A stretch of DNA of 64,000 nucleotides from the NCBI GenBank assembly GCA_016207165.1, contig JACQQD010000011.1, forward strand, positions 6,515 through 70,514. The letters are read 5' to 3'. Every line of letters starts with the position of its first letter. The stretch's first letter is position 1. The notes under the pieces are model-generated. The model was not told the origin of the DNA. It worked only from the letters and a program-made list of their open reading frames with translations, and did not search any database. A program made the translations under genes and the position numbers. The stretch is from Candidatus Micrarchaeota archaeon (GTDB taxonomy: Archaea; Micrarchaeota; Micrarchaeia; Norongarragalinales; Norongarragalinaceae). Positions 2,536-25,549 of the stretch are shown here, piece after piece.

Positions 2536-3075
2536 TCAGGACGTCTTCCAATCCGATCCCGCCGCAAAATCCGATTCGAACACGTCTAAAAACCGTTGCG
2601 CCACCGCCGAATCCTGGATGAGCACGGCCGCCTCGCGGTTGAGTTTCATGGCGTGACGCGACCAATTCGTGGAACCCACGAAAACCTGGACTCCGTCCAC
2701 CACCATGAATTTGGCGTGCGTGGACGCAAAATCGCGGGACGCCCACCGCACCGCCACGCCGGACAACGCCAGTTTTTCCGCGGTGAACAAATTGGACTCG
2801 ATCTGCGGATCCAAAACGACGCGAACCATGGCTCCCCGATTGGACGCGTCAATAAGGGCGTCCAAAAGAGGCGCGTACGAAAACTGGTAAAGCTGGACGT
2901 TCACGGAATGGCGTGCCGAAGCAATCAACCCCAACAAAACGGGTTCGGAGGCTTCCGGGGAAAAAACGGGCTGCACCAGGGCGGAATCCACGGCAACCGG
3001 GGACAAAAATCCGTGCACGAAAAAACCGGCGGCAAATGCGGCGGCCGCCAGAACCAGGAAAAACGCGTCCCGCAA
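2536..3075 (-). CDS. phospholipase D/nuclease-like protein (HKD motif), membrane-anchored
   Basis: HxK(x4)D motif 'HAKFMVVDG...GSTNWS'. N-terminal hydrophobic helix. Confidence 0.6.
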   Translation of the reverse strand: MRDAFFLVLAAAAFAAGFFVHGFLSPVAVDSALVQPVFSPEASEPVLLGLIASARHSVNVQLYQFSYAPLLDALIDASNRGAMVRVVLDPQIESNLFTAEKLALSGVAVRWASRDFASTHAKFMVVDGVQVFVGSTNWSRHAMKLNREAAVLIQDSAVAQRFLDVFESDFAAGSDWKTS

Positions 3076-3086
3076 ACAAAACCGCC

Positions 3087-3956
3087 TTAATACGACGCTT
3101 CAATGAAGGCGCCGACAACCAGAAGCAACACGGAAATGCCCAAAAGCACGAAGGAGACCTTGAACACGTGGCGGAACAAAACGGGCTTGGACAACCCGTT
3201 CTTCATGAGTTCCATGGAAAACAATCCGCCGGCGATGCTCGCCAAAAAGTACGCGCCCAACTCGAAGATGCCGTGAGGCAACAACACCAAAAAACCCTGC
3301 ACCACACCCAAAGGCCCAATGACCTGCATTTTCTTGCCGACCACGACCCCAATGATGGACGCGTTCCAAAGCAGCAAGTAAATCGAGCCGATGCCGTACA
3401 CCAAACTGAACACCAACATCAACCCCAAAACCTGGAGGTTGTGCGTGAACAAAAACAAGAACAAGTCGCCGGACACGTCGCCCATGGGCGTGGTGACGCG
3501 GCCCTGGAGTACGGAGGACTGAATCAGATCGACTTCCCGCAATTGGTCGGCGAACAATTCCGACGAGCCCGGCACCGATTGGCCGAACAACTGGAAGGGT
3601 TCCGGGGGAAGCACGGCAAACCAGAACGTGTACGCCAACGCGGCCCCCAAAAAGAAGAAGCCGAAGACTTCCAGCATGTCGGCGTGATGCGTCCGAAGGT
3701 GCCCCAACACCGACGTCAGAGGAACGTGGTGGTTCTTGAACTCCTCCACTTCCTTTTCCTCGTCTTCCTCTTCTTCCAACAGCAGCCGCCAAACCACGGG
3801 AATCAACGGCACCATGGTAAAGACGATGATGGACCCCCGAATCGGTAAAAACAATTCCACCAAAACGCCAAACGAGACGAAAACGAAGGTGGCCAGAACC
3901 ATGGCCCACGGGTCCCTGCGCACCTGGCTGGGCGAAACCAGAAAATCCAAGACCAT
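3087..3956 (-). CDS. DUF95/SpoIIM-like polytopic membrane protein
   Basis: Multiple TM helices, acidic loop and 'AYFLASIAGG' segment typical of the SpoIIM/DUF95 family. Confidence 0.4.
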   Translation of the reverse strand: MVLDFLVSPSQVRRDPWAMVLATFVFVSFGVLVELFLPIRGSIIVFTMVPLIPVVWRLLLEEEEDEEKEVEEFKNHHVPLTSVLGHLRTHHADMLEVFGFFFLGAALAYTFWFAVLPPEPFQLFGQSVPGSSELFADQLREVDLIQSSVLQGRVTTPMGDVSGDLFLFLFTHNLQVLGLMLVFSLVYGIGSIYLLLWNASIIGVVVGKKMQVIGPLGVVQGFLVLLPHGIFELGAYFLASIAGGLFSMELMKNGLSKPVLFRHVFKVSFVLLGISVLLLVVGAFIEASY

Positions 3957-4007
3957 GAAAAAGCATAGTGCGCCGAGCGCTTTAAACCCGGCGGGTGCGC
4001 ATGCCGC

Positions 4008-5036
4008 CTAAGCCCGCGAAAACCCGGCCAGCGTCTTCTGTTTCTCGCCCAACGATTCCAGAGGCTGGGCATCAAAGCCTCGTTTCCGAAGCTCAGACGC
4101 GAACTTGGCCGACGGGCCGTGCGTGCAAAACACTTTTTTGGGGTTGCACGCGGACACGAACTCAACCAGTCCCGGAAAATCGTTGTGGTCGCTCAAGCAA
4201 AACGCTTGGTCCACGCCAAAACCGTTCGTCAGCGACCAGCCGGTGGCCACGGAAAGAGACACCTTCCTTCCATACGCCCGGTATAGCCCCTCCGCCAAAA
4301 ACGGCTTGACGTTGTGCATCGGCAGAACCGCGGCAAAACCGCCTTTGAGCGCCGACGGGTCGTTGCACGTATAATCCAACGCCACGCCGTGCCGCTGGTA
4401 GACTTCGTTGACGGCGGCAATGGATTGATCCACCACAGGACAAATCCCCGCCTCGTTGAGCGCGGAAACGACTTCTTGCGCTTTACCCAACGCGTAAGCG
4501 CCAAACACCGCAATTCTTCCCATTGCGAGCTTTTCGTTCGCCCACCGCCCCATGTCGGCGTACACCTCGCTTCGATCCGGAAAAACGTACTCGGGGGAAC
4601 CGTACGTACACTCCAAAAGCAACGTGTCGCACTCTACGGGCTTGGCGGCTTTTTGCGTCAACGAGTCCTCCGACAAAAAGTCGCCCGTGTACAAGAACGA
4701 CTCGCTTCCCTGAACGAAAAGCATGCGCGAACCCAGCACGTGGCCGGCATTCAAAAGCGTGAACCGCGCGGAGACGCCTTGGTGGAAAGACTGCGTTTTT
4801 TCGGGCACCGCTTTGCCGCGCGCCAAGAGCAAGTCCATGGTTTCCCTGCTTGAAAGCACCAATTCGGCGTTCCGAAGGGAACGGTAATGGTCAAAGTGGG
4901 CGTGGGAAACGAACGCCTTGGAGCCTTTGGAATCCAGCGCGAAGCGGTCGCTGCCGCTTTGCACAAAGGCGTTGGGTGGGTCAAACGCCAACATCCCACC
5001 CACTACACCCCCAATTGATTTAAACTCTTGGTTCAA
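4008..5036 (-). CDS. beta-CASP family metallo-beta-lactamase nuclease (~340 aa)
   Basis: MBL motif 'HAHFDH'. beta-CASP motifs 'DTLLLECTYG', 'LSDHND', 'CTHG'. 4-bp ATGA overlap with the upstream gene indicates co-transcription with the transfer-like operon. Confidence 0.7.
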   Translation of the reverse strand: MNQEFKSIGGVVGGMLAFDPPNAFVQSGSDRFALDSKGSKAFVSHAHFDHYRSLRNAELVLSSRETMDLLLARGKAVPEKTQSFHQGVSARFTLLNAGHVLGSRMLFVQGSESFLYTGDFLSEDSLTQKAAKPVECDTLLLECTYGSPEYVFPDRSEVYADMGRWANEKLAMGRIAVFGAYALGKAQEVVSALNEAGICPVVDQSIAAVNEVYQRHGVALDYTCNDPSALKGGFAAVLPMHNVKPFLAEGLYRAYGRKVSLSVATGWSLTNGFGVDQAFCLSDHNDFPGLVEFVSACNPKKVFCTHGPSAKFASELRKRGFDAQPLESLGEKQKTLAGFSRA

Positions 5037-6517
5037 ACCGGCCGCACCATGGCCAAACCCAGCACGAACACCAACGCCAAAAGCAGGCCGTCGTACCCAC
5101 GGATGACGTCAAAAGAAAAACCGGGCGCTGATTCGACGTACACGGCGGCGGCACTGGATACGGGTGCAAAACCTTCCGAACCCAGAAACGAGACCGTCAC
5201 CCGGTGAATGCCTGGTTCCGAAAAGGAAATTCGCTCCACTACCCAGCCCTCGTCATTGGTCACTGAATCCCACGCGGATTCGGGCGTCTGGATGCGCACC
5301 ATGGCACCGGAAAGCGGACCTCCGGTCACGCGTTCAAGTCGGGCCAACACGTCCACCGATTCCCCGGGCCGGATGGCGTCGTGGGAAACGTTGACAGCCA
5401 ACCGAGCCGCGTCAAAGGTTTCCATTCTGACGGCTTTGGAAGCCACGTGGCCGAATACGTCGCGGGCCTCAAAAACCACGTCGTGCGCGCCCAAAATCCG
5501 GGAAGAAAACACGTTTTGCTCCAGGGCGTACCCCCGTACATAGGATTCCGGCGAAAACACATGCGCCTTCAACGTCACGTCGGAATCCGCGTCCAGCCGG
5601 TCATCCGCACGGGTTTCAACGTATTGGACACCCCGCGCATTTTCTTTGACGTCGAAAGCCAAGCGGTTCCACTCCGACACCCGCTTTCCGTCCAGCCTCG
5701 TCTCCACGTAGTAAACCGAGGCGTTGGACAACCAGTAAAAACGCATCCATGGAAGCAGAATGCTTCGCTTGAGGGTCCACGGAGCCAACAAAACGCCTTC
5801 GAAAACCGGGTTGACCACCGGCGAGGATACGACGTTGGATTTCCCGGAATACGGGTAGGAATCCACGCGATGCGAGTACTCCATGTAGGGAACCGTCCAG
5901 CAATACCAGGGCCCGCATTCCTCGCGGCATTTTTGCTCCTGAGTGCTCGTGGTGTAGTACAGCTTCAATTCCCCCTCCAGCCATGCCTGAAGAGGACTTT
6001 GGGCCGCGGCCAGTTCCTCGGCGTTAAACGGAGTGCGCAACGGGTTGGAAGGGTTTTGGATGGTTTTACGCACGCCGTCCAAATCAAAGTGGGCGGTAAA
6101 CGTCGGAACCGCGCTGGAAAACACGGTCTGCGACTGGCTCGTCCCACAGCCATCAACTCGCCCCACCGGGGGAAAACGGGGGTACGCGTCGTACGACCAA
6201 CCCCACACCCACGCCGGCACATCCACCGCGGACACGTTGCCGTCCACCGACGGAAACGGGGGATGCAGTTGAATGGAAAACAAAAGCAGGGGATTGGACG
6301 GCGCGGCATAGCCCCCCGTATCGACGCGGACACCTTGGAGAGATGAAGCCATGGCCAAGTTGTGCTGCGCCACGGCGTCATGAGGCGGCTGAACGACGGC
6401 CGAACACGCGCCCAACAACAAGGCCAAAAGCAAAACGCTACGCACGAAGCAACCGCTCCAAATCCAAGAGAGAAAGCCAGTTGCCGCAACCCGCTTTGAC
6501 GCGTTCGCGGGCGGCAT
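5033..6517 (-). CDS. secreted lipoprotein-like protein with C-terminal TM anchor
   Basis: N-terminal hydrophobic signal with a lipobox-like 'LLGAC'. C-terminal 'PGF..' followed by a TM segment. Overlaps both neighbours. Confidence 0.45.
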   Translation of the reverse strand: MPPANASKRVAATGFLSWIWSGCFVRSVLLLALLLGACSAVVQPPHDAVAQHNLAMASSLQGVRVDTGGYAAPSNPLLLFSIQLHPPFPSVDGNVSAVDVPAWVWGWSYDAYPRFPPVGRVDGCGTSQSQTVFSSAVPTFTAHFDLDGVRKTIQNPSNPLRTPFNAEELAAAQSPLQAWLEGELKLYYTTSTQEQKCREECGPWYCWTVPYMEYSHRVDSYPYSGKSNVVSSPVVNPVFEGVLLAPWTLKRSILLPWMRFYWLSNASVYYVETRLDGKRVSEWNRLAFDVKENARGVQYVETRADDRLDADSDVTLKAHVFSPESYVRGYALEQNVFSSRILGAHDVVFEARDVFGHVASKAVRMETFDAARLAVNVSHDAIRPGESVDVLARLERVTGGPLSGAMVRIQTPESAWDSVTNDEGWVVERISFSEPGIHRVTVSFLGSEGFAPVSSAAAVYVESAPGFSFDVIRGYDGLLLALVFVLGLAMVRPV

Positions 6518-8486
6518 CCAACCGGAAGACCAAAACCTTTTTACCTTTCCTCGCCCGGATGCCCTCGTTGACCCAAGAAATCAGCCAACCCGAGGTGACG
6601 AAAACGTCCAACAACCGCCTCCTGAAAAACGCCGCACGCAACCCCGACTCATCCGGATACCATGAACGACACGCTACCAGGCCTCCTCCATCCATGGCCA
6701 GTTGAGCGGATGCGCCAGCCACAGCCCTTGAAAGGCTCTCCGGAAGAACCACGGCGTGGGGGTCCCCCAAACCGCGCTCCAAATGCGTTTTCAGTTCAGC
6801 CAACCGCACCGGCATGCGCGTCCAACCAAAAACGCGGTTAACGTGCAGGACGGCATCCACCAAAAATCCGGCGTCCACCGTTTGCCGCAACGCGTGAAGC
6901 TTTTCCGGAGGATCCACGCGTACGAATTGACCCATCCGGCTTGAAAGCCCAAAGGCCACAGCAAAAAACGCCAAGGCCCCGACGCCCATCAAGCGATCCG
7001 GCCAAGAGGACAAAAAACCCGCCGTGGACTGGACGCGCGCATTCACGGCCACAGGCCCCACTTCAACGACATACGTCTTGCCGTCCCCATGAAAAGAAAG
7101 GTCCTCAAAACGGATTGCGCCGCCAGCATCCGTGTAAAACACCGAACCGTTCCAGTACACGGGCTGGCGGGCGTACGCCACGCCGTCCACCAAAACCATG
7201 GCCGAAATGCGCTTGGTGCCAGGGTCGGCTTTGGCGATGCGGACCTCCGGCGCTTGCACGTGGACCGCGGAATAGGAAGACGCCCCGCCGTCCGAAAACG
7301 AAATCAAAAAATCGCCGGACTTGTTGAACCCAATGCTCTTGGACAAAAGAAAAAGGCCGGACGAAACCTGGCCGAACTCCCGGGATTCAAGCACGCGCCC
7401 GTCTTGAACCAGAGAATACGTGAACCGGGAGCCACGGGAACGGTTGGAGAAAAGCGATACGGAAAGCGATTCGTTGATCCACGCCACAGCCGGATTCAGC
7501 ACACGCAGATCCGAACGGTTCAAGGAAAAGTGCAGACGACGGGAAGCGTTTCCGCCATCCAGCCACACCAACGCGTGCGTGGCTGAAGTGGAAAACGGTT
7601 GCGAGAAAATCGTTTGCGGCAAAAAAAAGTTCCCCTCGAATTCCGTCAACGGGTCCTGCCACGACGCATTCAAAACAAAGTCCGCCACGGCATCCCCCGC
7701 CGAAAAGCCTGAAGAAAAACCCCGGTCCAAAGGTCTGGGGTACGCCGCCAAGTAGCCCCCGTTTTTGAAGACCTGCCAAGAACCCCTGCGGTACGCCGAA
7801 CCGTTTTTGGCCTCCAACCGGTACCCCGACAACGCGTCATCCGAAACAAAGTCCACGCCCAAGCCCTCTTTTTGGATCTCCCAATCCGGGTTGGCCGCCA
7901 AGCCTTTGGAGTCCCAAACATACGAAAAAGGAAGGCCCACGTGCACCACCACGCCCCCGCCTCGAATCCACTGAACCAAACCACCTGAAGAAATAAACTC
8001 GCGAGGAAACGCGGACGAAGCCACCACCAAAATCCCAGGCGTTAAGAGCGTAAGCCCGCGAAGCGGCACGCGCGACACGGAAACATCCCACGAATCAAGG
8101 CGTTTTTCCAAGCGCTCCAAAAATTCGGGGAAAAACTGCTGGTCGGATTCCGACAATACGTACACTCGGCTTGGAACGGCATCCCGAAACAACGCCACCC
8201 GCACGCGGGCCCGGCCGCTTCCATCCACGAAGAAAAACGCCTTGGACGCGTTGCCCTCAAACCACGCCAGGCCAGCGTCTTGCACGGAAGCCGGAATACC
8301 CTCCGTGGATTCAACGACGTCCCCGTACAGAAAGTACACCGAAAACGATGCAACCGCCAAGGCGACCAACACGAAAAACCGCTTCACGGCCGCACATCCA
8401 CCTCCACCAACCGCGCTGATTTCGGCAGAAAAGACGCAAAAGAAGCGGCAAACGAGTCGGACACCTGTTCGTCGGAGAAACCGCAT
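6438..8486 (-). CDS. large membrane protein with N-glycosylation-sequon-rich extracellular domain
   Basis: 682-aa ORF. N-terminal TM, then ~450 aa with many N-x-S/T sequons, a second TM ('GVGALAFFAVAFGL') and a C-terminal cytoplasmic domain. True start uncertain. Confidence 0.45.
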   Translation of the reverse strand: MRFLRRTGVRLVCRFFCVFSAEISAVGGGGCAAVKRFFVLVALAVASFSVYFLYGDVVESTEGIPASVQDAGLAWFEGNASKAFFFVDGSGRARVRVALFRDAVPSRVYVLSESDQQFFPEFLERLEKRLDSWDVSVSRVPLRGLTLLTPGILVVASSAFPREFISSGGLVQWIRGGGVVVHVGLPFSYVWDSKGLAANPDWEIQKEGLGVDFVSDDALSGYRLEAKNGSAYRRGSWQVFKNGGYLAAYPRPLDRGFSSGFSAGDAVADFVLNASWQDPLTEFEGNFFLPQTIFSQPFSTSATHALVWLDGGNASRRLHFSLNRSDLRVLNPAVAWINESLSVSLFSNRSRGSRFTYSLVQDGRVLESREFGQVSSGLFLLSKSIGFNKSGDFLISFSDGGASSYSAVHVQAPEVRIAKADPGTKRISAMVLVDGVAYARQPVYWNGSVFYTDAGGAIRFEDLSFHGDGKTYVVEVGPVAVNARVQSTAGFLSSWPDRLMGVGALAFFAVAFGLSSRMGQFVRVDPPEKLHALRQTVDAGFLVDAVLHVNRVFGWTRMPVRLAELKTHLERGLGDPHAVVLPESLSRAVAGASAQLAMDGGGLVACRSWYPDESGLRAAFFRRRLLDVFVTSGWLISWVNEGIRARKGKKVLVFRLDAARERVKAGCGNWLSLLDLERLLRA

Positions 8487-9886
8487 TGCTTGAGGTGCCG
8501 GCGAACGGCGTCATCCGCCAAGCCCACATCGGAAAGCTTGGCCACCCACGACCCGGCATCCACCGCATTTGATTTTCCCGAAAGCCAGGCCTCCAACTCC
8601 AAAGCCTTGGAAGCGGAGACCCCCAATTTTTGCAGTTCCGAAAGAAACTTTTTCTTTTCAAACGAAAACGCCACGCTTTTCACCTCCAACGACACCCATT
8701 CCAACAACGCCTCGCCGTCCACCCGCTCCAAGAAAAACGCGTCACCCTGCGAAAAACCGGCCCACTGCAAGTTCACCGCGCAACAACCCACCGGCAACAA
8801 GCCTATGCGCCGCCGAACCGCATCGGAAAACCCGAGGGTCTTCTGCAAATAGTCCAAGCTGTCCGAAAACGCGGTGCGAAACATGAACAGCGACCCCACA
8901 TTGGAAAAAATGGCGGAATGCACGTCCATGGGATTCTGGGAAGCGATGACCAAACCGAAGGCGTACTTCCGCCCCTCCCGAACGATGGCCACCGGGTCGC
9001 CGTCTTCTCGGCAGATCTTCCAAGCCTCATCCAACACCACCCACCACTTCAAGCGCCGCCCCTCACCCGGCCCGCACGCCCGCATCTTCTCCGCAACGAA
9101 CTGAAGCAACGACAGCCCCGCCAAGCTTCGAAAGGACTCCGACGGCAAGGCCGTCAAGTCCACGCACACCAAACCCGCTTCCAAGAGCTTTTCCAACGCA
9201 AACGAACTGGGCTTGGCGAAAAAATCGGATCCCCCTATGACCAGGGGGCGAAGCAGAAGCACCGCGTTTTCCATCTCGCGCTTGTCCCACGCCGACGCCC
9301 TCCTGGACTTCGCCTTCAGCCACGCCGACACGTCTTTGAGCGTCGGCGGCCTCTTGGAAAACTTCCGCATCGCATAACACTGTTCAATGGCAAAACGCAC
9401 CCACTGGCGTTCCCGAGCAAACTGGCCCAAGTCCGTCAACAACGCCAACGCCTCCACCACCTGACGCGTGCGCTGAGAAGGCGTCATGCCTCCCAAATCC
9501 AGCAAGTTCAATGACGCCTCCCCCAACCGGATGACGTGACCCCCGGACTGCTTAACCCAAGAAGCGTACTCGCCGGACCAATCCAAAATCAAGGCATGAG
9601 TACCCCACACCAAATTCGAGCGCGTCAAAAACGACTTGACGAAAAAACTCTTGCCCGAACCCGTCATGCCCACCACCGCCACGTGCGGATTGGCCAAGTG
9701 AGCAAACGACCAGCAAAACGGCACGCCGAACGCCTTGGCTTTCGACACCCAGATGCCGTCCGTCGGATCCGAAAACAAGAGCCTTGACGGCGGCTGGGAC
9801 GGCCGGACAAACAAGGGCCTGGACCGAAGCGCTCCGGACAAAACGGGCCTGGACTCTGGAAACCCCAACCACGGCCACGCGTTCAT
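8384..9886 (-). CDS. VirB4/TraC/HerA-superfamily (DUF87-like) secretion ATPase
   Basis: Walker A 'GMTGSGKS', Walker B 'VVLDEAWK' and arginine finger 'REGRKYAFGLVIASQNP', characteristic of FtsK-HerA/VirB4 ATPases. Start overlaps the upstream stop (ATGA). Confidence 0.7.
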   Translation of the reverse strand: MNAWPWLGFPESRPVLSGALRSRPLFVRPSQPPSRLLFSDPTDGIWVSKAKAFGVPFCWSFAHLANPHVAVVGMTGSGKSFFVKSFLTRSNLVWGTHALILDWSGEYASWVKQSGGHVIRLGEASLNLLDLGGMTPSQRTRQVVEALALLTDLGQFARERQWVRFAIEQCYAMRKFSKRPPTLKDVSAWLKAKSRRASAWDKREMENAVLLLRPLVIGGSDFFAKPSSFALEKLLEAGLVCVDLTALPSESFRSLAGLSLLQFVAEKMRACGPGEGRRLKWWVVLDEAWKICREDGDPVAIVREGRKYAFGLVIASQNPMDVHSAIFSNVGSLFMFRTAFSDSLDYLQKTLGFSDAVRRRIGLLPVGCCAVNLQWAGFSQGDAFFLERVDGEALLEWVSLEVKSVAFSFEKKKFLSELQKLGVSASKALELEAWLSGKSNAVDAGSWVAKLSDVGLADDAVRRHLKQCGFSDEQVSDSFAASFASFLPKSARLVEVDVRP

Positions 9887-10671
9887 GAAACCCGCCCCAG
9901 AAACGATTCATGCGACACGGGTATAGCGGCTTTCCAGTCCAAGCACCGCTTGACTTCGTCCCCGCGAAGCAACCGCACCGGCGCGTTGAGCGCATTGGCC
10001 ACCACGGCCTTCAATTCCCTTGCCTGCAAACGCACCCGCTCCGCGGCCTGGGCCTCCGAAAAACCCGAAGCCGTAGTCGAGACAAAGTACACCACGTCCA
10101 ACGGCTTCTGCCCCTGCGCCAACTTGTCCAACAACCCCGAAAACATGGAGAGTTTCCGCTCCTCACGCGCCACCGCCGACACGTCGGGTTTCGGCGACTT
10201 CTTTAACCGGCTCAACAAAAGCTCCGACTCCAAGCGCTTGGTCAAAACCGATTCCCGGTACTTTTCCACGTCCAAGCCGAACACCAATACGCTAAACTGC
10301 GCCGGAAACGTCAACGCCGACAGCGCCTGCTCAAACGACGCGGCATACGACGCCGTCTTCTCGGGCGAAGCAGACGACGGGCAATGCGACACGTCCACCT
10401 CCAAGAACGCGGACGACAAGAAACGGTCGCCATCCGGCAAAACGGCGACTTCGTCCAGCAACCGCCACGAACCCCGCGTCTCCACCACATGCGCTTTCTT
10501 CAGAAACGCCGGAAGCAGCACATCGCCAAACCGCTGCACCGCCACCGCGAAGAAAAACAAGAGTGATGAAAAAACCAAGGCGACAAGGCTACCGGCGACC
10601 AGGGCCAACACCACGCACAGCCCTCCCCCTCCAAGGCACGCCAACAGCGCGTCCTTGGGCTTCAACTCCAT
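9883..10671 (-). CDS. membrane-anchored protein of transfer-like operon
   Basis: N-terminal TM helix, then ~200 aa soluble domain. In-operon overlap with both neighbours. Confidence 0.4.
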   Translation of the reverse strand: MELKPKDALLACLGGGGLCVVLALVAGSLVALVFSSLLFFFAVAVQRFGDVLLPAFLKKAHVVETRGSWRLLDEVAVLPDGDRFLSSAFLEVDVSHCPSSASPEKTASYAASFEQALSALTFPAQFSVLVFGLDVEKYRESVLTKRLESELLLSRLKKSPKPDVSAVAREERKLSMFSGLLDKLAQGQKPLDVVYFVSTTASGFSEAQAAERVRLQARELKAVVANALNAPVRLLRGDEVKRCLDWKAAIPVSHESFLGRVS

Positions 10672-11606
10672 AACACGACCTCCGACGCGAGCGCCTTATA
10701 GAGAGAGCGCACGAACAGGAACACGACTCCCAAATTGAACAACGGAAAAAACGTCGTCTGCACCACCAACTCGGCGACCAGCTTAGCCAAGTTGGACAAC
10801 GCGTCCACGGCCTGGTTCCACAACGAATTCGCCGCCGACGTCAACAAACTGACCACGAAGTTGCCCAGCGACGCCGCATCCAAGAAATTCAGGGTCTCCA
10901 AGGGAAACGCTTCGTTGAACTCTTTGAGCGACTCCGTGTACACGTCGATGGAGGACGCCATTTTTTCCATGGCCGCCGCGTTGAATACGAACGTCAACGG
11001 GAAAACGAAATACAGCCCCACAGCCAACGCCATCATGAACGCGCCCACCGGACGCGTCAAAGAAAAAGAGCGAAGCACCACGCCCACGGGCAAAAAGTAG
11101 TACATCATGGTCGCTTGAATGAAAACCAGCAAGTAGATTTGAACCAGGTTCGTCAGCGACACGAACGACAACGCACTCAAAATGAATTTGGCCTGGCCCA
11201 ACTGGGCATCCAAGCCCGCCAACGGCCTGCCCGAAATCCCCACCCCCACCGGAGCGATGCTGACTTGCACGTCCTGCAACGCCGCCAACATCAACGTGAA
11301 CACCGTCAACTGGGCAGAGGCCTGGGCAATGTTCTGGTTCACGCCATTGAGATACGTGCCCGCAAACACGATGGGCTCCTGGCCGCCGGCGAGGTCCGTG
11401 GAGAGCGACTGCAACGCCAGGGAACCGGCCAAAAGCCCGCCCACCAAAACACCGGAGACCACGACCTGCATGAACTCCGCCCGCGCCCACACACGCAACC
11501 GGCGGAGGTCAAACACGCTGGCAAAAGCAAACAGGACCCCAACAACCAAAAGACTCAACGTGACGGCGGAGACGGCCACCGGCTGCCAACCGGACACGAA
11601 CTCCAT
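10662..11606 (-). CDS. polytopic membrane protein (VirB6/TrbL/CedA-like topology)
   Basis: 314 aa with about six predicted TM helices. Located between the small 2-TM protein and the ATPase. Confidence 0.45.
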   Translation of the reverse strand: MEFVSGWQPVAVSAVTLSLLVVGVLFAFASVFDLRRLRVWARAEFMQVVVSGVLVGGLLAGSLALQSLSTDLAGGQEPIVFAGTYLNGVNQNIAQASAQLTVFTLMLAALQDVQVSIAPVGVGISGRPLAGLDAQLGQAKFILSALSFVSLTNLVQIYLLVFIQATMMYYFLPVGVVLRSFSLTRPVGAFMMALAVGLYFVFPLTFVFNAAAMEKMASSIDVYTESLKEFNEAFPLETLNFLDAASLGNFVVSLLTSAANSLWNQAVDALSNLAKLVAELVVQTTFFPLFNLGVVFLFVRSLYKALASEVVLWS

Positions 11607-11607
11607 G

Positions 11608-11922
11608 TCAGATGCCCGTCAACCACGACACCAGCGTCGGCGCCACGTTGCCCACGATCACGGCGATGGCGCCCCCTACGCCCACGCGCTGGGCCCATGA
11701 CTTCATGCGCGCGTTCAATTCGTACGAGCCGGCCATCGCGCCAAAAGCGTACAAGCCTCCAGCCAACAAAATGGCGAACAACCCCAACGTCGGCAGAACC
11801 GTCTGCAACAACGACACCAATTCCTGAATCTGCGTTTCCACGGCCATTCCAAGACCACCTCGGTCTTGGTCAGCCGAAAAGCCGTAAAAAACGTTGGGTG
11901 GAAAAAAAATCAACTGATACAT
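11608..11922 (-). CDS. small 2-TM hairpin protein (VirB2/CedA1-like)
   Basis: 104 aa with two hydrophobic helices separated by a short loop. First gene of the operon. Confidence 0.4.
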   Translation of the reverse strand: MYQLIFFPPNVFYGFSADQDRGGLGMAVETQIQELVSLLQTVLPTLGLFAILLAGGLYAFGAMAGSYELNARMKSWAQRVGVGGAIAVIVGNVAPTLVSWLTGI

Positions 11923-11961
11923 CCGGAACCTGTTTTTAGAAGAAAAAGAGGATGCGGAAAT

Positions 11962-12372
11962 TCAAAGCATGGCTGCGAGATCCTTGGTCTTAAATACGCG
12001 GACCAGGCGTTGCCGCTCAAAATGCCGGTCATCCGACCATATACCGTCCACCCTGACCGCTAAGGCCGCCGCCAAAAACGGCGAGTCCTTTGGATCAACT
12101 GCATCCAAAGCAGCGCGGGCGGCTCCCATGAATGGCTTTAACTCGGAGGCCTCCAGAAACAAAAGCCGAGAAAACATGAGTTCACGCAGGGCCTCAAAAT
12201 CAGGTCGGGACAGCCCCGATTTTCGCCGCAGCTCTTGCTCATACTTAGACAACTCCGAGCGCATCAAGCCAATCGAGAAAAACCGAAACTTCTTCGAGAA
12301 CAAAACCCGCCGCGAAAACGAATCGCGTAGAAGCGCCGCGATGAACCGGTTTGAATCAACGACGAGCCTCAT
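11962..12372 (-). CDS. PIN-domain ribonuclease (VapC-like toxin)
   Basis: N-terminal 'LVVDSN' acidic motif typical of PIN. 136 aa. Overlaps the upstream small gene. Confidence 0.55.
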   Translation of the reverse strand: MRLVVDSNRFIAALLRDSFSRRVLFSKKFRFFSIGLMRSELSKYEQELRRKSGLSRPDFEALRELMFSRLLFLEASELKPFMGAARAALDAVDPKDSPFLAAALAVRVDGIWSDDRHFERQRLVRVFKTKDLAAML

Positions 12373-12596
12373 TCCAAACGCTTCCGGATGTCCGCCTTCA
12401 GCTTGTTGCCAATTCGCTCCACATCGGCCTCCGTCAGCGTGCTTTTCTCCAGCAACTGGTCCATCATGTCCAAGACCTCAATTTCCTTGGCAAACGCGCG
12501 GCGGGCGATCTCGCTCCATTTAATTTCCGAATGCGGCCGCATTTTCGCCAGCAAATCATCCGGAATCGACAACGTCATGTTACCCATTTCAAACAC
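12369..12596 (-). CDS. putative antitoxin (VapB-like)
   Basis: 75 aa. 4-bp overlap with the PIN gene. Small DNA-binding-like N-terminus. Confidence 0.4.
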   Translation of the reverse strand: MFEMGNMTLSIPDDLLAKMRPHSEIKWSEIARRAFAKEIEVLDMMDQLLEKSTLTEADVERIGNKLKADIRKRLE

Positions 12597-12731: not shown

Positions 12732-14075
12732 TCAGTTTCCCAATTCGGCGTCAATAACGGATTTGAACGCCGAATACGGCTGCGCGCCCACCAGGGTCTG
12801 GCCATTGATGACGAAGCTGGGAGTGCCAGAAATTCCGGCGGAAACGCCTTCGCGGTAATCCGCGGCTACCGAATCCTTGTACTTGCCCGAATCCAGGCAC
12901 GCGTCAAAAGCCGTGCCGTCCAAACCGATTTCGCGCGCCCATGCCTTCAAATCGTCCACCGAGTAATTCACGGTAGTAGTACCTGAACTGTCCGCATTCT
13001 GTTCGCCAAACATTTTGTCATGCATCTGCCAATACTTGCCCTGGTCGCCGGCACACCGCGCCGCTTCGGAGGAGACGTGCGCCATGGGATGAAAACTCAA
13101 GGGAAAGTCCTTGAAGTAAAAACGAACTTTGCCGGAATCAATGTAATCGCCTTGAATCAGCGGAAGCGTTTCCGCGTAAAACCTCCGGCAAAAAGGACAT
13201 TGGTAATCCGAAAACTCCACCACGATGACGGGTGCATCCGCACGCCCCCTCATCCCGGCGTACGTCGAAATCAAGTCACGGGCGTGAACCGAAGGGCGAA
13301 GCGTGGGACTGGGCGTTGGCGTCGGGGAAACCGGCAACCCCAGTTCCCGGCGAATCGCGGCGTCAAACGCCTCGGAAGGCTGGGCGCCCACCAAGGCCTT
13401 TGCGTTGATGTAAAACGTCGGCGTCCCCGATATTCCGAGGTCAACCGCTTCCTCAACCTGCTGCTCCACGCGGCCCGCGTACTTGCCGGAATCAAAACAG
13501 GAATCAAACAATTCCCGGTTCAAGCCCAACTCGGACGCGAAGTCCTTGAAAACGGTTCGGGCGTTCAACCGCGACTGGTCCCTGAGGACCTTGTCGTGGT
13601 AATCCCAAAACCGGGTTTGTTCGTGAGCGCAGTACGCCGCTTCGGCGGCTTCGCGGGCGCGTTCATGGAACGACAACGGAAAGGGACGGTATTGGAACCG
13701 GACTTGGCCGGATTGAATGTACGTTCCCACCACCGAGTAAAACGACGCGTCATAGAATTGCTTGGTGAACCGGTCCTGCAAATCCTCGTACGCCACGATG
13801 ACCACCGGCGCTTGATCGCTTCCCAACTCCGGCTCGACCCAATCGGATTCGGAAAGCACGGGACGCGGCGTTGAAGTGGTGGAAGGCGACCCGGCCGCCG
13901 AAGGCGTTTCCTCGGTTATCGGCACCGGCGTTTGGGTGGCCGCCGAAGGCGTGGACGTGCCTTGCGGCAGGACGAAGTCCGTTCGCGCCACGTCCAACGG
14001 GTCCGGACGGCCGGACTCGATGCAACCCAATAGCAATACGGCCAACACGAGACTGGCCAGCATGAAAAAACGCAT
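12732..14075 (-). CDS. tandem DsbA-like thioredoxin-fold lipoprotein
   Basis: Lipobox 'LLLGC' after a signal peptide. Two DsbA-like domains: the first has CxxC ('CPFCRRFY'), the second has a degenerate active site. Thr/Pro-rich linker. Start trimmed to an internal Met. Confidence 0.6.
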   Translation of the reverse strand: MRFFMLASLVLAVLLLGCIESGRPDPLDVARTDFVLPQGTSTPSAATQTPVPITEETPSAAGSPSTTSTPRPVLSESDWVEPELGSDQAPVVIVAYEDLQDRFTKQFYDASFYSVVGTYIQSGQVRFQYRPFPLSFHERAREAAEAAYCAHEQTRFWDYHDKVLRDQSRLNARTVFKDFASELGLNRELFDSCFDSGKYAGRVEQQVEEAVDLGISGTPTFYINAKALVGAQPSEAFDAAIRRELGLPVSPTPTPSPTLRPSVHARDLISTYAGMRGRADAPVIVVEFSDYQCPFCRRFYAETLPLIQGDYIDSGKVRFYFKDFPLSFHPMAHVSSEAARCAGDQGKYWQMHDKMFGEQNADSSGTTTVNYSVDDLKAWAREIGLDGTAFDACLDSGKYKDSVAADYREGVSAGISGTPSFVINGQTLVGAQPYSAFKSVIDAELGN

Positions 14076-14226
14076 ACGCAAAATCTCGGAGTTCCACTCT
14101 TTTAAAGCCTTCAACGCCCTGTTTGTCCCCCAGCCTAAATCTTTAAATGAATTCCCAGCCCAAATGCCAACGCCATATAGCAATCCGGGAAACTTTCTTG
14201 GTTTGCTATAACGAAGAGACATTTTC

Positions 14227-15180
14227 TTGAGGTGGATGAAATTCATGCAAGCGCAAATGCTCCAAACCAGGCCCAAACCCGCATGGCCCCGGGAACTATT
14301 GATTTTGGCTTTTGACCACCGCGGCTCCTTCAAGCAAAAACTCCTCGGCTTTCCGGAACCCCTTTCACCGGAACAACTCCAGAAAGCCATTGACCTGAAA
14401 ACCATGATTTACGAAGGCTTCCAGAAAGCCATCCAGATGGGCGTACCCAAACATAAAGCCGGAATGCTGTTGGACGAAGAAATGGGCGAGAAAAACCTCA
14501 AAGACGCCAAAACCAAAGGCTACACCGTGATTTGCCCCGCCGAGAAAAGCGGGCAAGACGAATTCGATTTCGAATACGAGAACTGGAAGGACCACATCCG
14601 CCAAATCGACGCCACCTTCTGCAAGGTTTTGGTGCGGTACAACCCCGAATCCGACTCCAAACTTAACGCTCGCCAAGCCGCCCGCCTCAAAGAACTTGGC
14701 GCGTTTCTGAAATCCATCGGCAAACTCTACCTCATTGAACCCCTGGTGCCGGCCACCGACTCGCAACTCAAGCAACTGGGAGGAGACAAAGCCAAATACG
14801 ACTCGGAACTCCGCCCCAAACTCATGGTTGAAATGATGCGCGAACTCCAAGACTTCGGGGTGGAGCCGGACGTGTGGAAACTGGAGGGCGTCGACCGGCC
14901 TCAAGACGCCCAAGCGTTAGTCAACCAAGCCCGGTTCGGCGGACGCAACGCCGGCATCGTGACGCTTGGGAGAGGCGAATCCAAGGAAAAAGTCGCGGAA
15001 TGGCTGAAAGTGGGGGCCCACATCGAAGGCATCAACGGATTTGCCATTGGTCGAACCATCTTCATGGACGCCTTGAAAGGCTTTTTGGAAGGCAAACTCA
15101 GCCGCCAGCAAGCCGTCCAAAAAATCGCTTCCACCTACAAGGAATTCGTGGATTTGTGGGAAAGCGAGAGAAAAAAATAA
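14227..15180 (+). CDS. DUF2090-type TIM-barrel aldolase-like protein (candidate class I aldolase)
   Basis: 'LAFDHRGSF' N-terminal motif of the DUF2090 family, which is fused to IolC kinases in bacteria. Adjacent to fbp. Confidence 0.4.
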   Translation: MRWMKFMQAQMLQTRPKPAWPRELLILAFDHRGSFKQKLLGFPEPLSPEQLQKAIDLKTMIYEGFQKAIQMGVPKHKAGMLLDEEMGEKNLKDAKTKGYTVICPAEKSGQDEFDFEYENWKDHIRQIDATFCKVLVRYNPESDSKLNARQAARLKELGAFLKSIGKLYLIEPLVPATDSQLKQLGGDKAKYDSELRPKLMVEMMRELQDFGVEPDVWKLEGVDRPQDAQALVNQARFGGRNAGIVTLGRGESKEKVAEWLKVGAHIEGINGFAIGRTIFMDALKGFLEGKLSRQQAVQKIASTYKEFVDLWESERKK

Positions 15181-21316: not shown

Positions 21317-22701
21317 AAAAAATGAAAAACTGGATTACAGTGATTGGATTTTTGGCCTTGCTCTCCGTAAGCCTCTCCGCCAACGTGCGCCCCATCTTCC
21401 TGAACCAAGACCCCGACCCAGCTGCCCCGGGACACTACGTGGAACTCCGCTTCAAAGTCGAGAAAACTACGACCGCCGAAATCCGGGACATGCAATTCCG
21501 ATTGGACGTGGTTTACCCCTTCTCCTTTGACGGCTCCGACACGCCCACCCGATCTTTCGGAAGCTTCACCGGCGCCACCATCGGCTCCGACAACCAATTC
21601 ATCTTGAAGTACAAAGTCTTCGTGGCTCCCGGCGCGCAAACCGACAAAGCCGAAGTCAAGCTCTACTACCGCGACAGCGCGCAGGACTGGACGGAATTCA
21701 AGTTCAACATCGCGGTGGACGACAGCCAACCCAACCTGGTGTTAGGATCCGTGAAAACAACGCCTGACGCACTCTTTGGCGACTTTGACGGCGCCAAAGT
21801 CAGCATCGCCTTAACCAACATCGGCGACAAAGACGCCCAAAACGTGCAAGCCACACTGAGACTGCCTGAAGGCTTTGAGCCGTCTTTTGGCTATTCCGAC
21901 CAAAGCGTGTACGGCACCATCACCCAAGGATCCAGCCAATCCGCCGACTTTTACGTGGACTTGAATGAATCCGTGGCCAAAGGATCCTACCCTGCACAAC
22001 TATTCATCCAATTCAAGCACGTCAACGACCCGCAAACCGACTACCGAAACGCCTCCATTCCCGTCAACCTGCAAGTCAAAGGCCGGCCGCAATTCAAAGT
22101 CGTCTCCGTCAAAACCACTCCCGACGCGTTGCACCCCGGCACGAAAGCCACCGTCAACGTCGTGATAGAAAACGTTGGAAGCGACGAAGGAAAATCCACT
22201 TCGCTTAAAGCCTTCAAGGAATCCACGCAACCCTTTGAATTCGACGACAAATCCGACTTCATCGGCAATTTGAAACCCGGAGAAAAAGGCGAAGCCGTTC
22301 TTTCCGTCAACGTGGCCCAAAACGCGGACCCAAAAATCTACCGACTCAACGTGGAAGCCCGATCCATCTACAACGACCAAGTCGTTTTGAGCACCGACAC
22401 CATCCAATTGGACGTGCAACCCGGCGGAGCAACCGGATTTGAGGGCAAAGACATTCTTCTGGTCCTGCTCTTGGCGGCCACCGCCTTTCTTGCCTACCGC
22501 CAATTCGGGCCCAAAACCAAGGGCGGACAAATCGAAAGCAAAGATGAAAAGACTGGAAAAGACGGAGGAGACCACTCCGGGCACGGCGGACATAGGACCA
22601 GCGGCCATGAAGAAAGCACTTCAACGGGTTCCAAAACCGAGGCCGAAGAAACCACCGAACCCAAACGCAAGGTCCACGTCGTGTTGGGGAAGAAAAAATA
22701 G
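21307..22701 (+). CDS. COG1361-like cell-surface (S-layer domain) protein with C-terminal TM
   Basis: Signal peptide, repeated beta-rich CARDB-like domains and a C-terminal TM with a basic tail. The archaeal COG1361/RND exporter gene pairing is known. Confidence 0.45.
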   Translation: MEVKKMKNWITVIGFLALLSVSLSANVRPIFLNQDPDPAAPGHYVELRFKVEKTTTAEIRDMQFRLDVVYPFSFDGSDTPTRSFGSFTGATIGSDNQFILKYKVFVAPGAQTDKAEVKLYYRDSAQDWTEFKFNIAVDDSQPNLVLGSVKTTPDALFGDFDGAKVSIALTNIGDKDAQNVQATLRLPEGFEPSFGYSDQSVYGTITQGSSQSADFYVDLNESVAKGSYPAQLFIQFKHVNDPQTDYRNASIPVNLQVKGRPQFKVVSVKTTPDALHPGTKATVNVVIENVGSDEGKSTSLKAFKESTQPFEFDDKSDFIGNLKPGEKGEAVLSVNVAQNADPKIYRLNVEARSIYNDQVVLSTDTIQLDVQPGGATGFEGKDILLVLLLAATAFLAYRQFGPKTKGGQIESKDEKTGKDGGDHSGHGGHRTSGHEESTSTGSKTEAEETTEPKRKVHVVLGKKK

Positions 22702-22806
22702 CTCGAAACCTTCGTTTTTTAGGGGCCGGTTGGGCTCCTTCGTCTTCTTTTTACCCGCTGGAAACGACCAGTCCGACCTCAAGCCAAAGCACCAACCAAT
22801 TACTTT

Positions 22807-23304
22807 TCAAATTACTTTTACTTCATTTCCTTTAGGTTTACGATTGATTAACTCTAGATGAATTGCGGTAACACCTTGAATTGCTTGAAGACGATGGGCA
22901 TCCACGTTCTTGACAAGTTCGTCAGTGACTTCCAATCGCTCGTCGTGATAAACAATACGTTTTTTCGGTCGTAAAATAATCTGCCCTATCCGGGGGTCTT
23001 CAATTGCTGCTTCTTCGTGGGCAACGCGATTTCCAATGTTCTTTACGTAGTCAATCGCCGTCAAAGTTCGCTTGCGGAGTTCTTCGTCGATTTTTTCCTT
23101 TTTACAAATTTTACAAAAAACCTGTTTTTTTGCCTCAAACGTTAAACGTTCGGATAACACGAAATCTCTTAAGGTAAAGGTCTTTTCATCTTGAGGCCAT
23201 ACAAAGTAGTTTGCCAAAAAAAACTCCAAGCCTTGTTCCAAACCAGCCCTCATCCGCAGTATTTCACCGCACCTGCGATGAAAAAGAGTAACGTTTTCTG
23301 ACAT
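22807..23304 (-). CDS. hypothetical protein (cassette A of TA/defence island)
   Basis: Start trimmed to a Met that sits ~25 bp downstream of a TATAAATT box. Lower GC than the flanks. No confident domain; 'NIGNRVAHEE' is only weakly HEPN-like. Confidence 0.35.
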   Translation of the reverse strand: MSENVTLFHRRCGEILRMRAGLEQGLEFFLANYFVWPQDEKTFTLRDFVLSERLTFEAKKQVFCKICKKEKIDEELRKRTLTAIDYVKNIGNRVAHEEAAIEDPRIGQIILRPKKRIVYHDERLEVTDELVKNVDAHRLQAIQGVTAIHLELINRKPKGNEVKVI

Positions 23305-23327
23305 GGACAAAAAAATAGGGAGGGTGT

Positions 23328-23335
23328 AATTTATA
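23328..23335 (-). promoter_or_regulatory. TATA-box-like element upstream of cassette A start
   Basis: Minus-strand 'GCTATAAATTAC' ~25 bp upstream of the ATG at 23304. Confidence 0.35.
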
Positions 23336-23447
23336 GCTAAACTGGGTGACCGTGAGAAAGGTAATTTGGGAACACGCTCACGCGTACTATCTCCGGGTGC
23401 GTTCCAATCCAGTGCCACGAGTCAAGCGTTTAAAAACGTGGGGAGGG

Positions 23448-23463
23448 GTCGTGGCCGGTGAAC
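23448..23463. repeat. conserved island motif copy 1 (GTCGTGGCCGGTGAAC)
   Basis: One of four near-identical 16-mers in the intergenic gaps of the cassette island. Confidence 0.7.
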
Positions 23464-23488
23464 CGTTGGGGGCGTTTTGTTGAAGGCA

Positions 23489-23845
23489 TTATTTTTTCTT
23501 GTAGCCGAAGCGTTTGTCGTAGGCGGGGTGCGGTTCGATGTTCAAGACGAACGAAATGATTTCGATTTCCGAGTCGCCGGCTTTCAGCGTGTAAAGCATT
23601 CGCCAAAATTGGGGCAATTCCACGCGGAACAAGTTCTTTACGTCATAGCGTTGGACGTATTCCTTCGGGATTTTCTCCTTGGAAATCGGGTCGCCGTAAT
23701 GGATGTTGGCCTTGATCAATTCGACTTTCTTGTTTACGGCGTTCAGGATGCTGCGCTCGAGTTTCGACGAGGGCGCGCGCTCGTTGAGGTACCGGTAGAC
23801 GTCCTCGGCTTCCGGCGAAAGGATGACGCGGACGGCCTTGTTCAA
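23489..23845 (-). CDS. RelE/ParE-family toxin
   Basis: 'NLFRVELPQFWRMLYTLKAGDSEIEIISFVLNIEPHPAYDKRFGY' fits the RelE/ParE C-terminal consensus. 118 aa. Confidence 0.55.
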   Translation of the reverse strand: MNKAVRVILSPEAEDVYRYLNERAPSSKLERSILNAVNKKVELIKANIHYGDPISKEKIPKEYVQRYDVKNLFRVELPQFWRMLYTLKAGDSEIEIISFVLNIEPHPAYDKRFGYKKK

Positions 23846-24114: not shown

Positions 24115-24115
24115 C

Positions 24116-24145
24116 TTTAGTTACTAAGTCGTAACTATTAGTTAC
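24116..24145. promoter_or_regulatory. inverted-repeat operator-like element (TAGTTAC..GTAACTA..TAGTTAC)
   Basis: Seen directly at the 5' end of the antitoxin gene. Confidence 0.35.
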
Positions 24146-24260: not shown

Positions 24261-24280
24261 AAATGGGATCGCGAATGGAT

Positions 24281-25524: not shown

Positions 25525-25549
25525 ATCCAAGAACCCGTCCGTTGATGAG

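Follow-up and report, generated by a model that had tools for sequence, protein, structure and literature searches.

We report on a stretch of 64,000 nucleotides (the window) from contig JACQQD010000011.1 (positions 6,515 to 70,514, forward strand; assembly GCA_016207165.1) of a groundwater metagenome-assembled genome (MAG) of Candidatus Micrarchaeota, and in particular on six adjacent minus-strand genes at positions 5033-11847, numbered g1 to g6. These genes probably encode a chromosomal, vertically inherited machine that is derived from a type IV secretion system (T4SS) and is specific to Micrarchaeota. An earlier inspection of the letters alone (the sequence-only reading) had proposed a reduced T4SS or Ced-like gene set at this place, and that proposal is borne out by a VirB2-type pilin, a VirB4/CedB-like ATPase and a VirB4-like fold predicted for g3. 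It had not noticed the split in VirB4: the simplest reading is that g3 would supply a VirB3-like anchor together with the VirB4 N-terminal domain, and g4 the motor. The features discussed here, including an adjacent beta-CASP nuclease gene (g7), are as follows (aa, amino acids; nt, nucleotides; TM, transmembrane).

11848-11925, minus strand: putative upstream control region, T-rich boxes GATTTTTTTTCCACCCAACGTTTTTTAC and an AGGTGG Shine-Dalgarno motif 7-8 nt 5' of ATG 11847.
11608-11847, minus strand: g1, VirB2/TrbC-type pilin by sequence, 79 aa, two TM helices and a basic loop, without a signal peptide in this clade.
10662-11606, minus strand: g2, 314-aa polytopic membrane protein at the VirB6/CedA position; VirB6 homology not demonstrated.
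9883-10671, minus strand: g3, 262 aa, modeled as a VirB3-like TM hairpin with a VirB4 N-terminal-domain-like cytoplasmic domain; predicted membrane-anchor half of a split VirB4.
8384-9886, minus strand: g4, VirB4/CedB-like ATPase reduced to the motor domain (Walker A, residues 72-79), with a C-terminal helical extension of ~100 aa.
6438-8387, minus strand: g5, conserved surface protein (TM, ectodomain predicted to be glycosylated, TM, ~160-aa cytoplasmic tail); third universal core component.
5033-6517, minus strand: g6, surface protein confined to this clade, its N-terminus of the signal/LLGAC kind, followed by a weakly matched Ig-like domain and, at the C-terminus, a TM anchor.
5019-5024, minus strand: TATA-like box TTTAAA of g7, ending 24 nt 5' of ATG 4994.
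4008-4994, minus strand: g7, orphan beta-CASP exonuclease of a ligase/Lhr-associated repair family; an adjacent gene and not a conserved component of the machine.

All seven minus-strand open reading frames (ORFs) exist where the sequence-only reading had placed them, and we take g1-g7 to be genuine genes because each has homologues elsewhere; in GenBank, all nine genes of the region (locus tags HY572_05680 to HY572_05720) are annotated as "hypothetical protein". With corrected starts, the junctions measure +1 (g1-g2), -10 (g2-g3), -4 (g3-g4), -4 (g4-g5) and -80 nt (g5-g6), and these spacings therefore indicate that g1-g6 form a tight, translationally coupled unit. The seven-gene operon first proposed is in this way reduced to six coupled genes; the nuclease gene, with its separate TATA-like box and a 38-nt spacer, would not belong to the same transcript. 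The 84 related loci (labeled L001 onward) to which the locus counts given here refer were compared by iterative hidden Markov model (HMM) mapping; L001, L002, L038 and L082 belong to the same clade as the window.

Sequence comparison identifies g4 as a VirB4/CedB-like ATPase that consists of the C-terminal motor domain only. The motifs pointed out in the sequence-only reading (GMTGSGKS, VVLDEAWK and REGRKYAFGLVIASQNP) are all present and invariant across relatives, catalytic residues included, and the protein carries the Pfam signatures DUF87, AAA_10 and P-loop_TraG. Among NCBIfam models it is matched best by CedB (8e-18) and by the CD1110 VirB4-like family (1e-16), each aligned in one continuous stretch that is confined to the C-terminal motor part of the model, and the TraC model also matches in one stretch. 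In the Protein Data Bank (PDB), the crystal structure of the VirB4 C-terminal domain (4AG5) is matched with an E-value of 5e-9, the whole domain being aligned. The CedB equivalog model NF041017 is the top model for g4, yet it gives 64 bits where its cut-off is 700 and covers model positions 251-533 only; g4 is not a CedB equivalog, and the TM and N-terminal domain are encoded apart, as g3. A tblastn search of PLSDB with g4 returned 152 plasmid records, 83 of them typed as conjugative, and the genes underlying the listed plasmid matches are annotated as VirB4-like (CD1110 family), TraC or DUF87. The window also encodes a second FtsK/HerA-superfamily ATPase (57733-59271, minus strand), which is of the HerA_C/DUF853 type (Pfam 1.2e-75) and stands in a context unrelated to the operon.

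The g3 product had been taken for a single-TM protein. Instead, TM prediction and an AlphaFold2 (AF2) model (predicted local distance difference test, pLDDT, 78) give a two-helix N-terminal membrane hairpin followed by an alpha/beta domain of ~190 aa, which should be cytoplasmic because basic residues flank both ends of the hairpin. When this model was compared with the PDB by Foldseek, the top six matches were TrwK/VirB4 chains of the R388 T4SS (E-value 1.1e-3, probability 1.0, 170-193 aligned columns), followed by a clear drop, and TrwK/VirB4 was picked out by two independent structure-comparison programs. The predicted structure of g3 thus shows a VirB4-like fold. At the sequence level, g3 has no match outside its own family, neither in Pfam nor in NCBIfam, and a profile search of PDB sequences returned only noise; in NCBIfam and Pfam scans of the whole g3 family, one member matched CedB (E=0.16) and otherwise no T4SS family was found. 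Comparisons of g3 with TrwK and PrgJ by hhalign were non-significant, single-sequence templates being probably too weak for this purpose, and tblastn of g3 against plasmids found nothing.

The arrangement of the two genes is consistent with a divided VirB4. The start of g4 lies only about 60 residues 5' of its Walker A motif, which leaves the ATPase with no N-terminal domain of its own; the g3 stop codon overlaps the g4 start by 4 nt, and the pair is adjacent in about 75 loci. An exhaustive search with the g3 profile yielded 215 clusters, the named members that were looked up being Micrarchaeia. The best 150 matches were mostly standalone proteins of ~240-280 aa, together with shorter fragments; no g3-ATPase fusion was evident among them, and the split therefore appears fixed. 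In the crenarchaeal proteins CedB and CedD, the N-terminal domains have been found each to superpose on another part of the corresponding VirB4 domain (PMC11868833).

Profile comparison identifies g1, again by its sequence, as a VirB2/TrbC-type pilin. Against the Pfam TrbC/VirB2 model, g1 scores 25.3 bits (E=1.8e-5), just under the cut-off of 27.9; among 27 relatives from related loci, 17 match PF18895 T4SS_pilin (best 7.6e-7) and 10 match TrbC, and the profile of the family gives a weak match to the R388 pilin TrwL in the PDB (E=0.045). The family alignment consists of two hydrophobic helices with a conserved basic loop, AGxxYAxGQxxGAExRA...W, and most pilin lineages have a cleavable signal peptide that is missing in the window clade. 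The two TM helices and the VirB2/CedA1-like topology given in the sequence-only reading therefore stand, whereas the length of 104 aa does not. We rejected the longer start because the additional 5' portion of the 104-aa ORF is T-rich, conserved and non-coding and because the NCBI entry (MBI4361241.1) and the three closest relatives start at ATG 11847, which is preceded by AGGTGG and gives 79 aa. The T-rich boxes and the Shine-Dalgarno motif upstream of g1 are kept in the window, L082 and L001 despite the divergence of the proteins, and this conserved region may serve as the promoter or control region of the operon.

Outside the window clade, most Micrarchaeota pilins have a conserved C-terminal cysteine, which window-clade pilins do not. 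Directly upstream of the operon, in both the window (12732-14405, minus strand) and L082, there is a gene for a membrane-anchored protein with two DsbA/thioredoxin domains.

The AF2 model of g2 (pLDDT 78) consists of six long helices. In a set of 8,102 ORFs, the N-terminal ~100 positions of the g2 family HMM match pilins (E 2e-4 to 6e-4), a relation that hhalign recovers weakly (E 0.0026, probability 12%); a pilin-like N-terminus has also been reported for CedA/CedA1 and VirB6/VirB2 (PMC9905601). The g2 profile has no match among PDB sequences, NCBIfam and Pfam scans of the entire g2 family found no T4SS family, and tblastn against plasmids found nothing. The hhalign comparisons with TrwI and PrgH were non-significant, single-sequence templates being here too probably too weak. 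We infer that g2 is a positional analogue of VirB6/CedA, homology being unproven.

The synteny of this locus across related archaea, which the sequence-only reading had left to be checked, shows that the operon is not missing from relatives and that its core recurs widely. Relatives of g4 form more than 880 clusters, nearly all labeled Micrarchaeota where they are named, and include the complete genome of Ca. Fermentimicrarchaeum limneticum. Across GTDB, with one genome per species, 474 stretches match the ATPase; the best 80 of these 474 are nearly all Micrarchaeota, Micrarchaeia or Anstonellaceae, with a few labeled ainarchaeum, Burarchaeum or Woesearchaeota. The widespread core order is g3, g4, a ~99-aa protein, a Zn-ribbon protein, a coiled-coil/winged-helix (wHTH) protein and g5. 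The ~99-aa protein, a duplicate of the C-terminal extension of g4, is found in about half of the loci; the Zn-ribbon protein (~130 aa, two TM helices) in 75 of the 84; and the coiled-coil protein (~255 aa, with the winged helix at its C-terminus) in 71. Locus L004 (11563-13016) exemplifies these three extra genes between the ATPase and g5, for none of which a T4SS counterpart is known, and equivalents occur in about 70 loci. These data support g3, g4 and g5 as a core conserved at chromosomal loci in hundreds of genomes of Micrarchaeota, a distribution wider than had been assumed.

Two variants stand out around this core. Loci of the Fermentimicrarchaeum type (L021/L081, 1-15600; L019, L020, L046, L051 and L054) have a 14-16-gene version with one to three pilins, two g3 paralogues and five to six g2 paralogues in tandem, of which one carries a fused Ig-like ectodomain (882-902 aa). 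Such expansions are reminiscent of VirB6 in Rickettsiales and of pilin arrays in Patescibacteria. The window clade has a compact variant with a single pilin and a single g2, besides g3, g4, a shorter g5 and its own g6; here the ~99-aa domain survives only as the C-terminal extension of the ATPase itself. The window version is thus a derived, compact variant of a Micrarchaeota-wide system.

Several observations weigh against a T4SS origin, and some of them would suit a membrane-anchored machine of the HerA/FtsK type, for instance a pump that moves DNA during division or segregation, or a device for defence or repair, whose function is unrelated to T4SS and whose small two-TM protein is not a pilin. 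We regard such a machine as unlikely. The g3-TrwK match is moderate (Foldseek E about 1e-3, query-normalised TM-score 0.35), and all family HMM scores are far under the curated cut-offs. With PADLOC, the HerA model scores 63.6 bits (in a split match) for g4, close to the 64.4 bits of CedB, and homologues of g4 have been named "HerA" by annotators. The hhalign E-values of g4 with PrgJ, TrwK and the HerA_C-type ATPase of the window are similarly weak; comparing a profile with a single sequence does not tell VirB4 and HerA_C-type proteins apart, and the motor domain by itself is therefore ambiguous. The widest partners (the Zn-ribbon and coiled-coil/wHTH proteins and g5) are not T4SS parts: the first two have no T4SS counterpart and are both missing from the window clade. 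Just 26 of the 84 loci have a pilin gene no more than 10 kb from the ATPase, so that in most the two are not adjacent, and g2-type genes occur in only about 12. The evidence is, moreover, of the gene level throughout, the pilus filament and the transport being predicted.

What decides us against the HerA/FtsK alternative is the way in which its models match and the company that g4 keeps. The NCBIfam HerA models align to g4 in two separated stretches at 20-37 bits (cut-offs 800-970) and leave out the HerA-specific regions. The operon does not have the architecture of HerA-NurA or HerA defence systems, with no NurA, Sir2 or other effector partner among the neighbours of g4, all of which are membrane or surface proteins. 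To this are added the VirB4-like fold modeled for g3, the recognition of the g1 family by independent Pfam pilin models, and the position of pilin genes, often in tandem, immediately 5' of g3 in several lineages, among them that of a Micrarchaeum MAG (L073) with an array of three.

The chromosomal nature of the T4SS-derived locus is indicated by its surroundings. The window clade shares its flanks, with FBPase and an aldolase-like gene on one side and a SpoIIM-like gene, a PLD nuclease, a GNAT gene and malic enzyme on the other, and these housekeeping flanks, conserved in L001, L002 and L082, therefore point to a stable chromosomal position. Elsewhere the window looks like ordinary chromosome: malic enzyme, a PEP-utilising enzyme and a class I Trp/Tyr-type aminoacyl-tRNA synthetase are encoded there, as are two tRNAs. 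The neighbours that were examined (PIN, DsbA-like, SpoIIM-like, PLD nuclease, GNAT and malic enzyme) include no relaxase, integrase or replication gene; neither the operon nor its examined flanks yielded a second T4SS ATPase or a coupling protein (VirD4), and no relatives of g4 were found in IMG/VR viral contigs. The view of the sequence-only reading, that the locus is chromosomal and not part of a plasmid, is upheld by these results.

It is accordingly very improbable that the cluster belongs to an integrated conjugative element or plasmid, whether as its transfer module or as a remnant in decay. Such an origin would agree with the closest bacterial relatives of the ATPase, which are on conjugative plasmids, and archaeal conjugative plasmids also have no recognisable relaxases (PMC12857230). 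A PIN_2-domain gene and a small overlapping upstream gene, likely a toxin-antitoxin pair, also lie immediately upstream of the operon, between the DsbA-like and pilin genes (11962-12596, minus strand); the pair is missing there in L082. The malic enzyme, FBPase, SpoIIM-like and PLD flanks, however, are the same in relatives whose ATPase identity is 55-56%, the core is found in the 474 matching stretches of species genomes, no tRNA border was seen, and no relatives turned up in viral or provirus contigs. The GC content of the operon and its GC content at third codon positions (GC3) also match those of the flanks, GC being even across both.

Homologues of g5 lie downstream of the ATPase in about 66 loci. 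The likeliest start of g5 is GTG 8387, which gives 649 aa and overlaps the ATPase stop by 4 nt, as in L082; of the 682-aa, sequon-rich surface protein with a cytoplasmic tail described from the letters alone, the sequons (nine N-glycosylation sites) and the tail therefore hold, and the length is most likely 649 aa. Neither Pfam nor the PDB gave a match for g5, which we infer to be an adhesin or an envelope scaffold. The g6 protein, confined to the window clade (5 loci), had been called lipoprotein-like, which is right as to its signal-like N-terminus with an LLGAC motif; a plain lipoprotein it is not, because it also has a C-terminal TM anchor. It has a weak Ig-like match (Pfam Big_3_5, E=0.01) and otherwise no family match, and a search of PDB sequences found nothing. 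The predicted topology and sequons of g5 and g6 fit exposed, glycosylated envelope proteins.

The sequence-only reading had assigned to the same transcript a beta-CASP nuclease as a dedicated processing enzyme of a seven-gene DNA-import operon, by analogy with the metallo-beta-lactamase (MBL) domain of ComEC. This we consider quite improbable. The g7 gene does lie on the same strand, 38 nt past g6, and no terminator-like site stands out between the two, as a scan for sigma-70 promoters and intrinsic terminators, which is unsuited to archaea, gave chance-level counts. All MBL and beta-CASP motifs are readable in g7, its catalytic motifs are intact, and the adjacency of g6 and g7 is kept in L082. 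A PLD-family nuclease is encoded two genes beyond, so that this lineage would have gathered nucleic-acid enzymes beside the operon. The distribution of g7 tells otherwise: it is carried by the window and L082 only, out of the 84 related loci. In L001 and L002 (55-56% ATPase identity) it is missing and the SpoIIM-like gene directly follows g6, and the L082 homologue stands at a distance of about 650 bp from g6, with two additional small genes after it.

The start overlap with g6 does not hold either. It exists only with the start TTG 5036, which we rejected, as it lies outside the homology to L082 and is not the NCBI start; the start at ATG 4994 (328 aa) is that of NCBI, and the homology to L082 (85% identical) begins exactly there. 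The resulting 38-nt spacer holds a TTTAAA that ends 24 nt before ATG 4994. This hexamer occurs 10 times in the 64 kb, where about 19 copies are expected by chance, and three copies (3981-3986, 5019-5024 and 36442-36447) end exactly 24 nt before a minus-strand ATG, those of the SpoIIM-like gene, g7 and the gene at 35791-36417, respectively; L082 has TTAAAT (before the g7 homologue) and TTTAAA at the equivalent positions. A TTTAAA at this distance agrees with the established geometry of an archaeal TATA box followed by a leaderless mRNA. The sites may thus be TATA boxes at about -27 of mRNAs that would be leaderless in the source organism, with g7 separately promoted.

As to its family, a question that the sequence-only reading had raised, g7 groups with the ligase-associated exonucleases. 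The match to TIGR04122 (ligase-associated DNA damage response exonuclease) is full length and by far the best (3.3e-44, 151 bits), although it does not reach the cut-off of 325, and that to aCPSF1 is partial (56 bits). Elsewhere the context of this family, the partner of the ligase TIGR04120 and the helicase TIGR04121, is an ATP-dependent ligase and an Lhr helicase and not a T4SS. The nearest metagenomic relatives of g7 (L085 and L089; 32-34% identity) are fused to an ATP-dependent DNA ligase and stand beside an Lhr-type DEXH helicase (1,032-1,039 bits to TIGR04121), whereas g7 is an orphan beside a membrane-protein operon, no ligase or Lhr having been found in the 64-kb window. To judge from its sequence, g7 is an orphan repair-type exonuclease, and its place beside the operon looks like a genus-level accident or a recent recruitment. 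Lateral acquisition of g7 was considered on the basis of composition and rejected, as its GC and GC3 equal those of its neighbours.

The ligase-fused relative in L085 (4062-6821), like that in L089, is a single polypeptide of 920 aa that combines the exonuclease with a full ATP-dependent DNA ligase. Just downstream of g7 (2536-3956, minus strand) are a SpoIIM-like protein with seven TM helices (Pfam SpoIIM 1.3e-20) and the PLD-family nuclease, which is predicted to be secreted (PLDc_2 1.3e-26, N-terminal signal/TM segment). This pair is syntenic in the four closest relatives and not in other Micrarchaeota.

By analogy with VirB4, VirB2, VirB6 and the Ced/Ted pili (PMC9905601), a T4SS-derived machine built from g1-g6 could work as follows. 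The g3 protein would anchor a g4 hexamer at the membrane, the two together reconstituting VirB4, and the g4 motor would extract the g1 pilin from the membrane. The pilin would be polymerised on a platform formed by g2. The universal g5 and the clade-specific g6 might form an envelope-spanning or adhesive part, the cytoplasmic tail of g5 possibly coupling to the motor. As there is neither a relaxase nor a coupling protein, as in Ced/Ted, the most likely job would be contact-dependent transfer of macromolecules, most plausibly the uptake of nucleic acids, between the reduced symbiont and a host or neighbour cell.

The direction of transport and the substrate are matters of speculation. Uptake of nucleic acids may be favoured by the missing relaxase and coupling protein, by analogy with Ced, which imports DNA, and by the nearby PLD nuclease and beta-CASP exonuclease, none of which is decisive. 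It is possible, if somewhat doubtful, that the machine is T4SS-derived and does not move nucleic acid, being instead an adhesive pilus or a device that delivers or takes up proteins or other molecules at the site of host contact. The conserved core has no DNA-processing gene, the surface proteins (g5, g6 and the Ig-domain fusions) are large and variable, and in Patescibacteria the chromosomal T4SS is essential for reasons independent of DNA uptake through ComEC (PMC12857230). On the other side, the only functionally tested archaeal relatives, Ced, import DNA (PMC9905601, PMC11868833), a wHTH protein belongs to the core of most lineages, and two nucleases are nearby in the window lineage; these points, too, are not decisive. 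A more specific idea, to which we give tentative weight, is that the Micrarchaeota machine with its unique split VirB4 is a symbiont-host conduit, corresponding to the "pili-like" connections between ARMAN and Thermoplasmatales, that takes up host nucleic acids or other macromolecules and is the archaeal (DPANN) counterpart of the essential T4SS of Patescibacteria.

The closest known parallels are the Ced and Ted systems of Crenarchaeota (CedA/CedA1/CedB, with CedD/E; TedA/TedC/TedB), domesticated T4SS that import DNA, with induction by DNA damage in the case of Ced. The Micrarchaeota machine resembles them in being chromosomal, in having no relaxase or coupling protein, and in its triad of a VirB2-like pilin, a polytopic protein and a VirB4-like ATPase. 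CedB is the top NCBIfam model for g4, and the N-terminal domains are VirB4-like on both sides; the window-clade pilin is without a signal peptide, like CedA1, and other Micrarchaeota pilins have one, like TedC. The g2 N-terminus has a weak similarity to pilins, which may correspond to that reported for CedA. The similarity to Ced/Ted is nevertheless marginal, at 64 bits against the 700-bit CedB cut-off, and in contrast to Ced/Ted the TM and N-terminal domain (g3) and the motor (g4) are separate genes and not one protein. None of the universal g5 and the Zn-ribbon and wHTH proteins of most lineages has a Ced/Ted counterpart, and the hosts are DPANN Micrarchaeota instead of thermophilic Crenarchaeota.

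In lifestyle, location, pilin arrays and the lack of a relaxase, the machine is also comparable to the T4SS of Patescibacteria, the Candidate Phyla Radiation (CPR), which is phylum-wide, chromosomal and relaxase-poor in ultrasmall, reduced episymbionts and is essential in Southlakia epibionticum (PMC12102498). Both have VirB2-like pilins, often in tandem, that match PF18895, and both have inner-membrane parts only, of the VirB3 and VirB4 types and, putatively in Micrarchaeota, of the VirB6 type. The Patescibacteria systems, mostly without a relaxase, are bacterial, are nested in MPF-FATA and have an intact VirB4 together with TrsD/T4CP-like (coupling-protein-like) ATPases, whereas the Micrarchaeota operon has a split VirB4 and no second ATPase. 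The debate on the substrate, adhesion or protein versus nucleic acid, is common to the two.

With conjugative T4SS of the MPF-FATA/VirB kind (PrgJ of pCF10; TrwK, TrwL, TrwM and TrwI of R388) the machine shares an ATPase akin to VirB4, TraC and CD1110, a g3 fold that matches TrwK and a pilin profile that weakly matches TrwL. Unlike them, it does not lie on a mobile element and is without VirD4, a relaxase, VirB1, VirB8, VirB9, VirB10 or VirB11, and similarity of g2 to VirB6 was not detected. The SPEARE giant proteins of Nanohaloarchaeota (PMC10266531), likewise from a DPANN symbiont, join a large surface ectodomain, a TM segment and a cytoplasmic VirB4-like ATPase, an association comparable to that of g5 beside g4. 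In SPEARE, however, a single giant polypeptide contains both the ectodomain and the VirB4/TraG-like ATPase, and neither a pilin nor a split VirB4 is described for it. The Micrarchaeota machine is outside every curated family, although it would work like Ced/Ted and the Patescibacteria T4SS. It is set apart by its split VirB4, by g5 as a universal partner, by the Zn-ribbon and wHTH proteins that accompany it in most lineages and by its restriction to one DPANN phylum.

To our knowledge, Ced and Ted of Crenarchaeota are the only domesticated conjugation machines described in archaea until now. A full-text literature search on Micrarchaeota and DPANN archaea found no prior description of the present system, but its coverage was incomplete and an earlier report is possible; the Mancarchaeum genome paper gives only type IV pili and Sec components, and as regards archaea a T4SS review of December 2025 treats plasmids of Sulfolobus and Thermococcus only. 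The operon bears on the means by which DPANN archaea hold on to their hosts and draw material from them. If our interpretation is correct, the pilin, the split VirB4 and g5 are candidate genes for cryo-electron tomography, proteomics and co-culture, for which Micrarchaeum and Mancarchaeum would be suitable, and the parallel with the essential T4SS of ultrasmall Patescibacteria would suggest that episymbionts of both domains have converged.

Two further observations concern the remainder of the window. Between 29839 and 44153, on the plus strand, long co-directional ORF runs resemble tryptophan and shikimate genes when read by eye, with a TrpB-like FGGMYVPE motif in the ORF at 33385-34521; if true, this would be a notable biosynthetic capacity for a DPANN archaeon. 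At ~22000-26000, a GC trough (0.49-0.51, compared with 0.55-0.59 elsewhere) coincides with small ORFs and a change in the sign of the GC skew.

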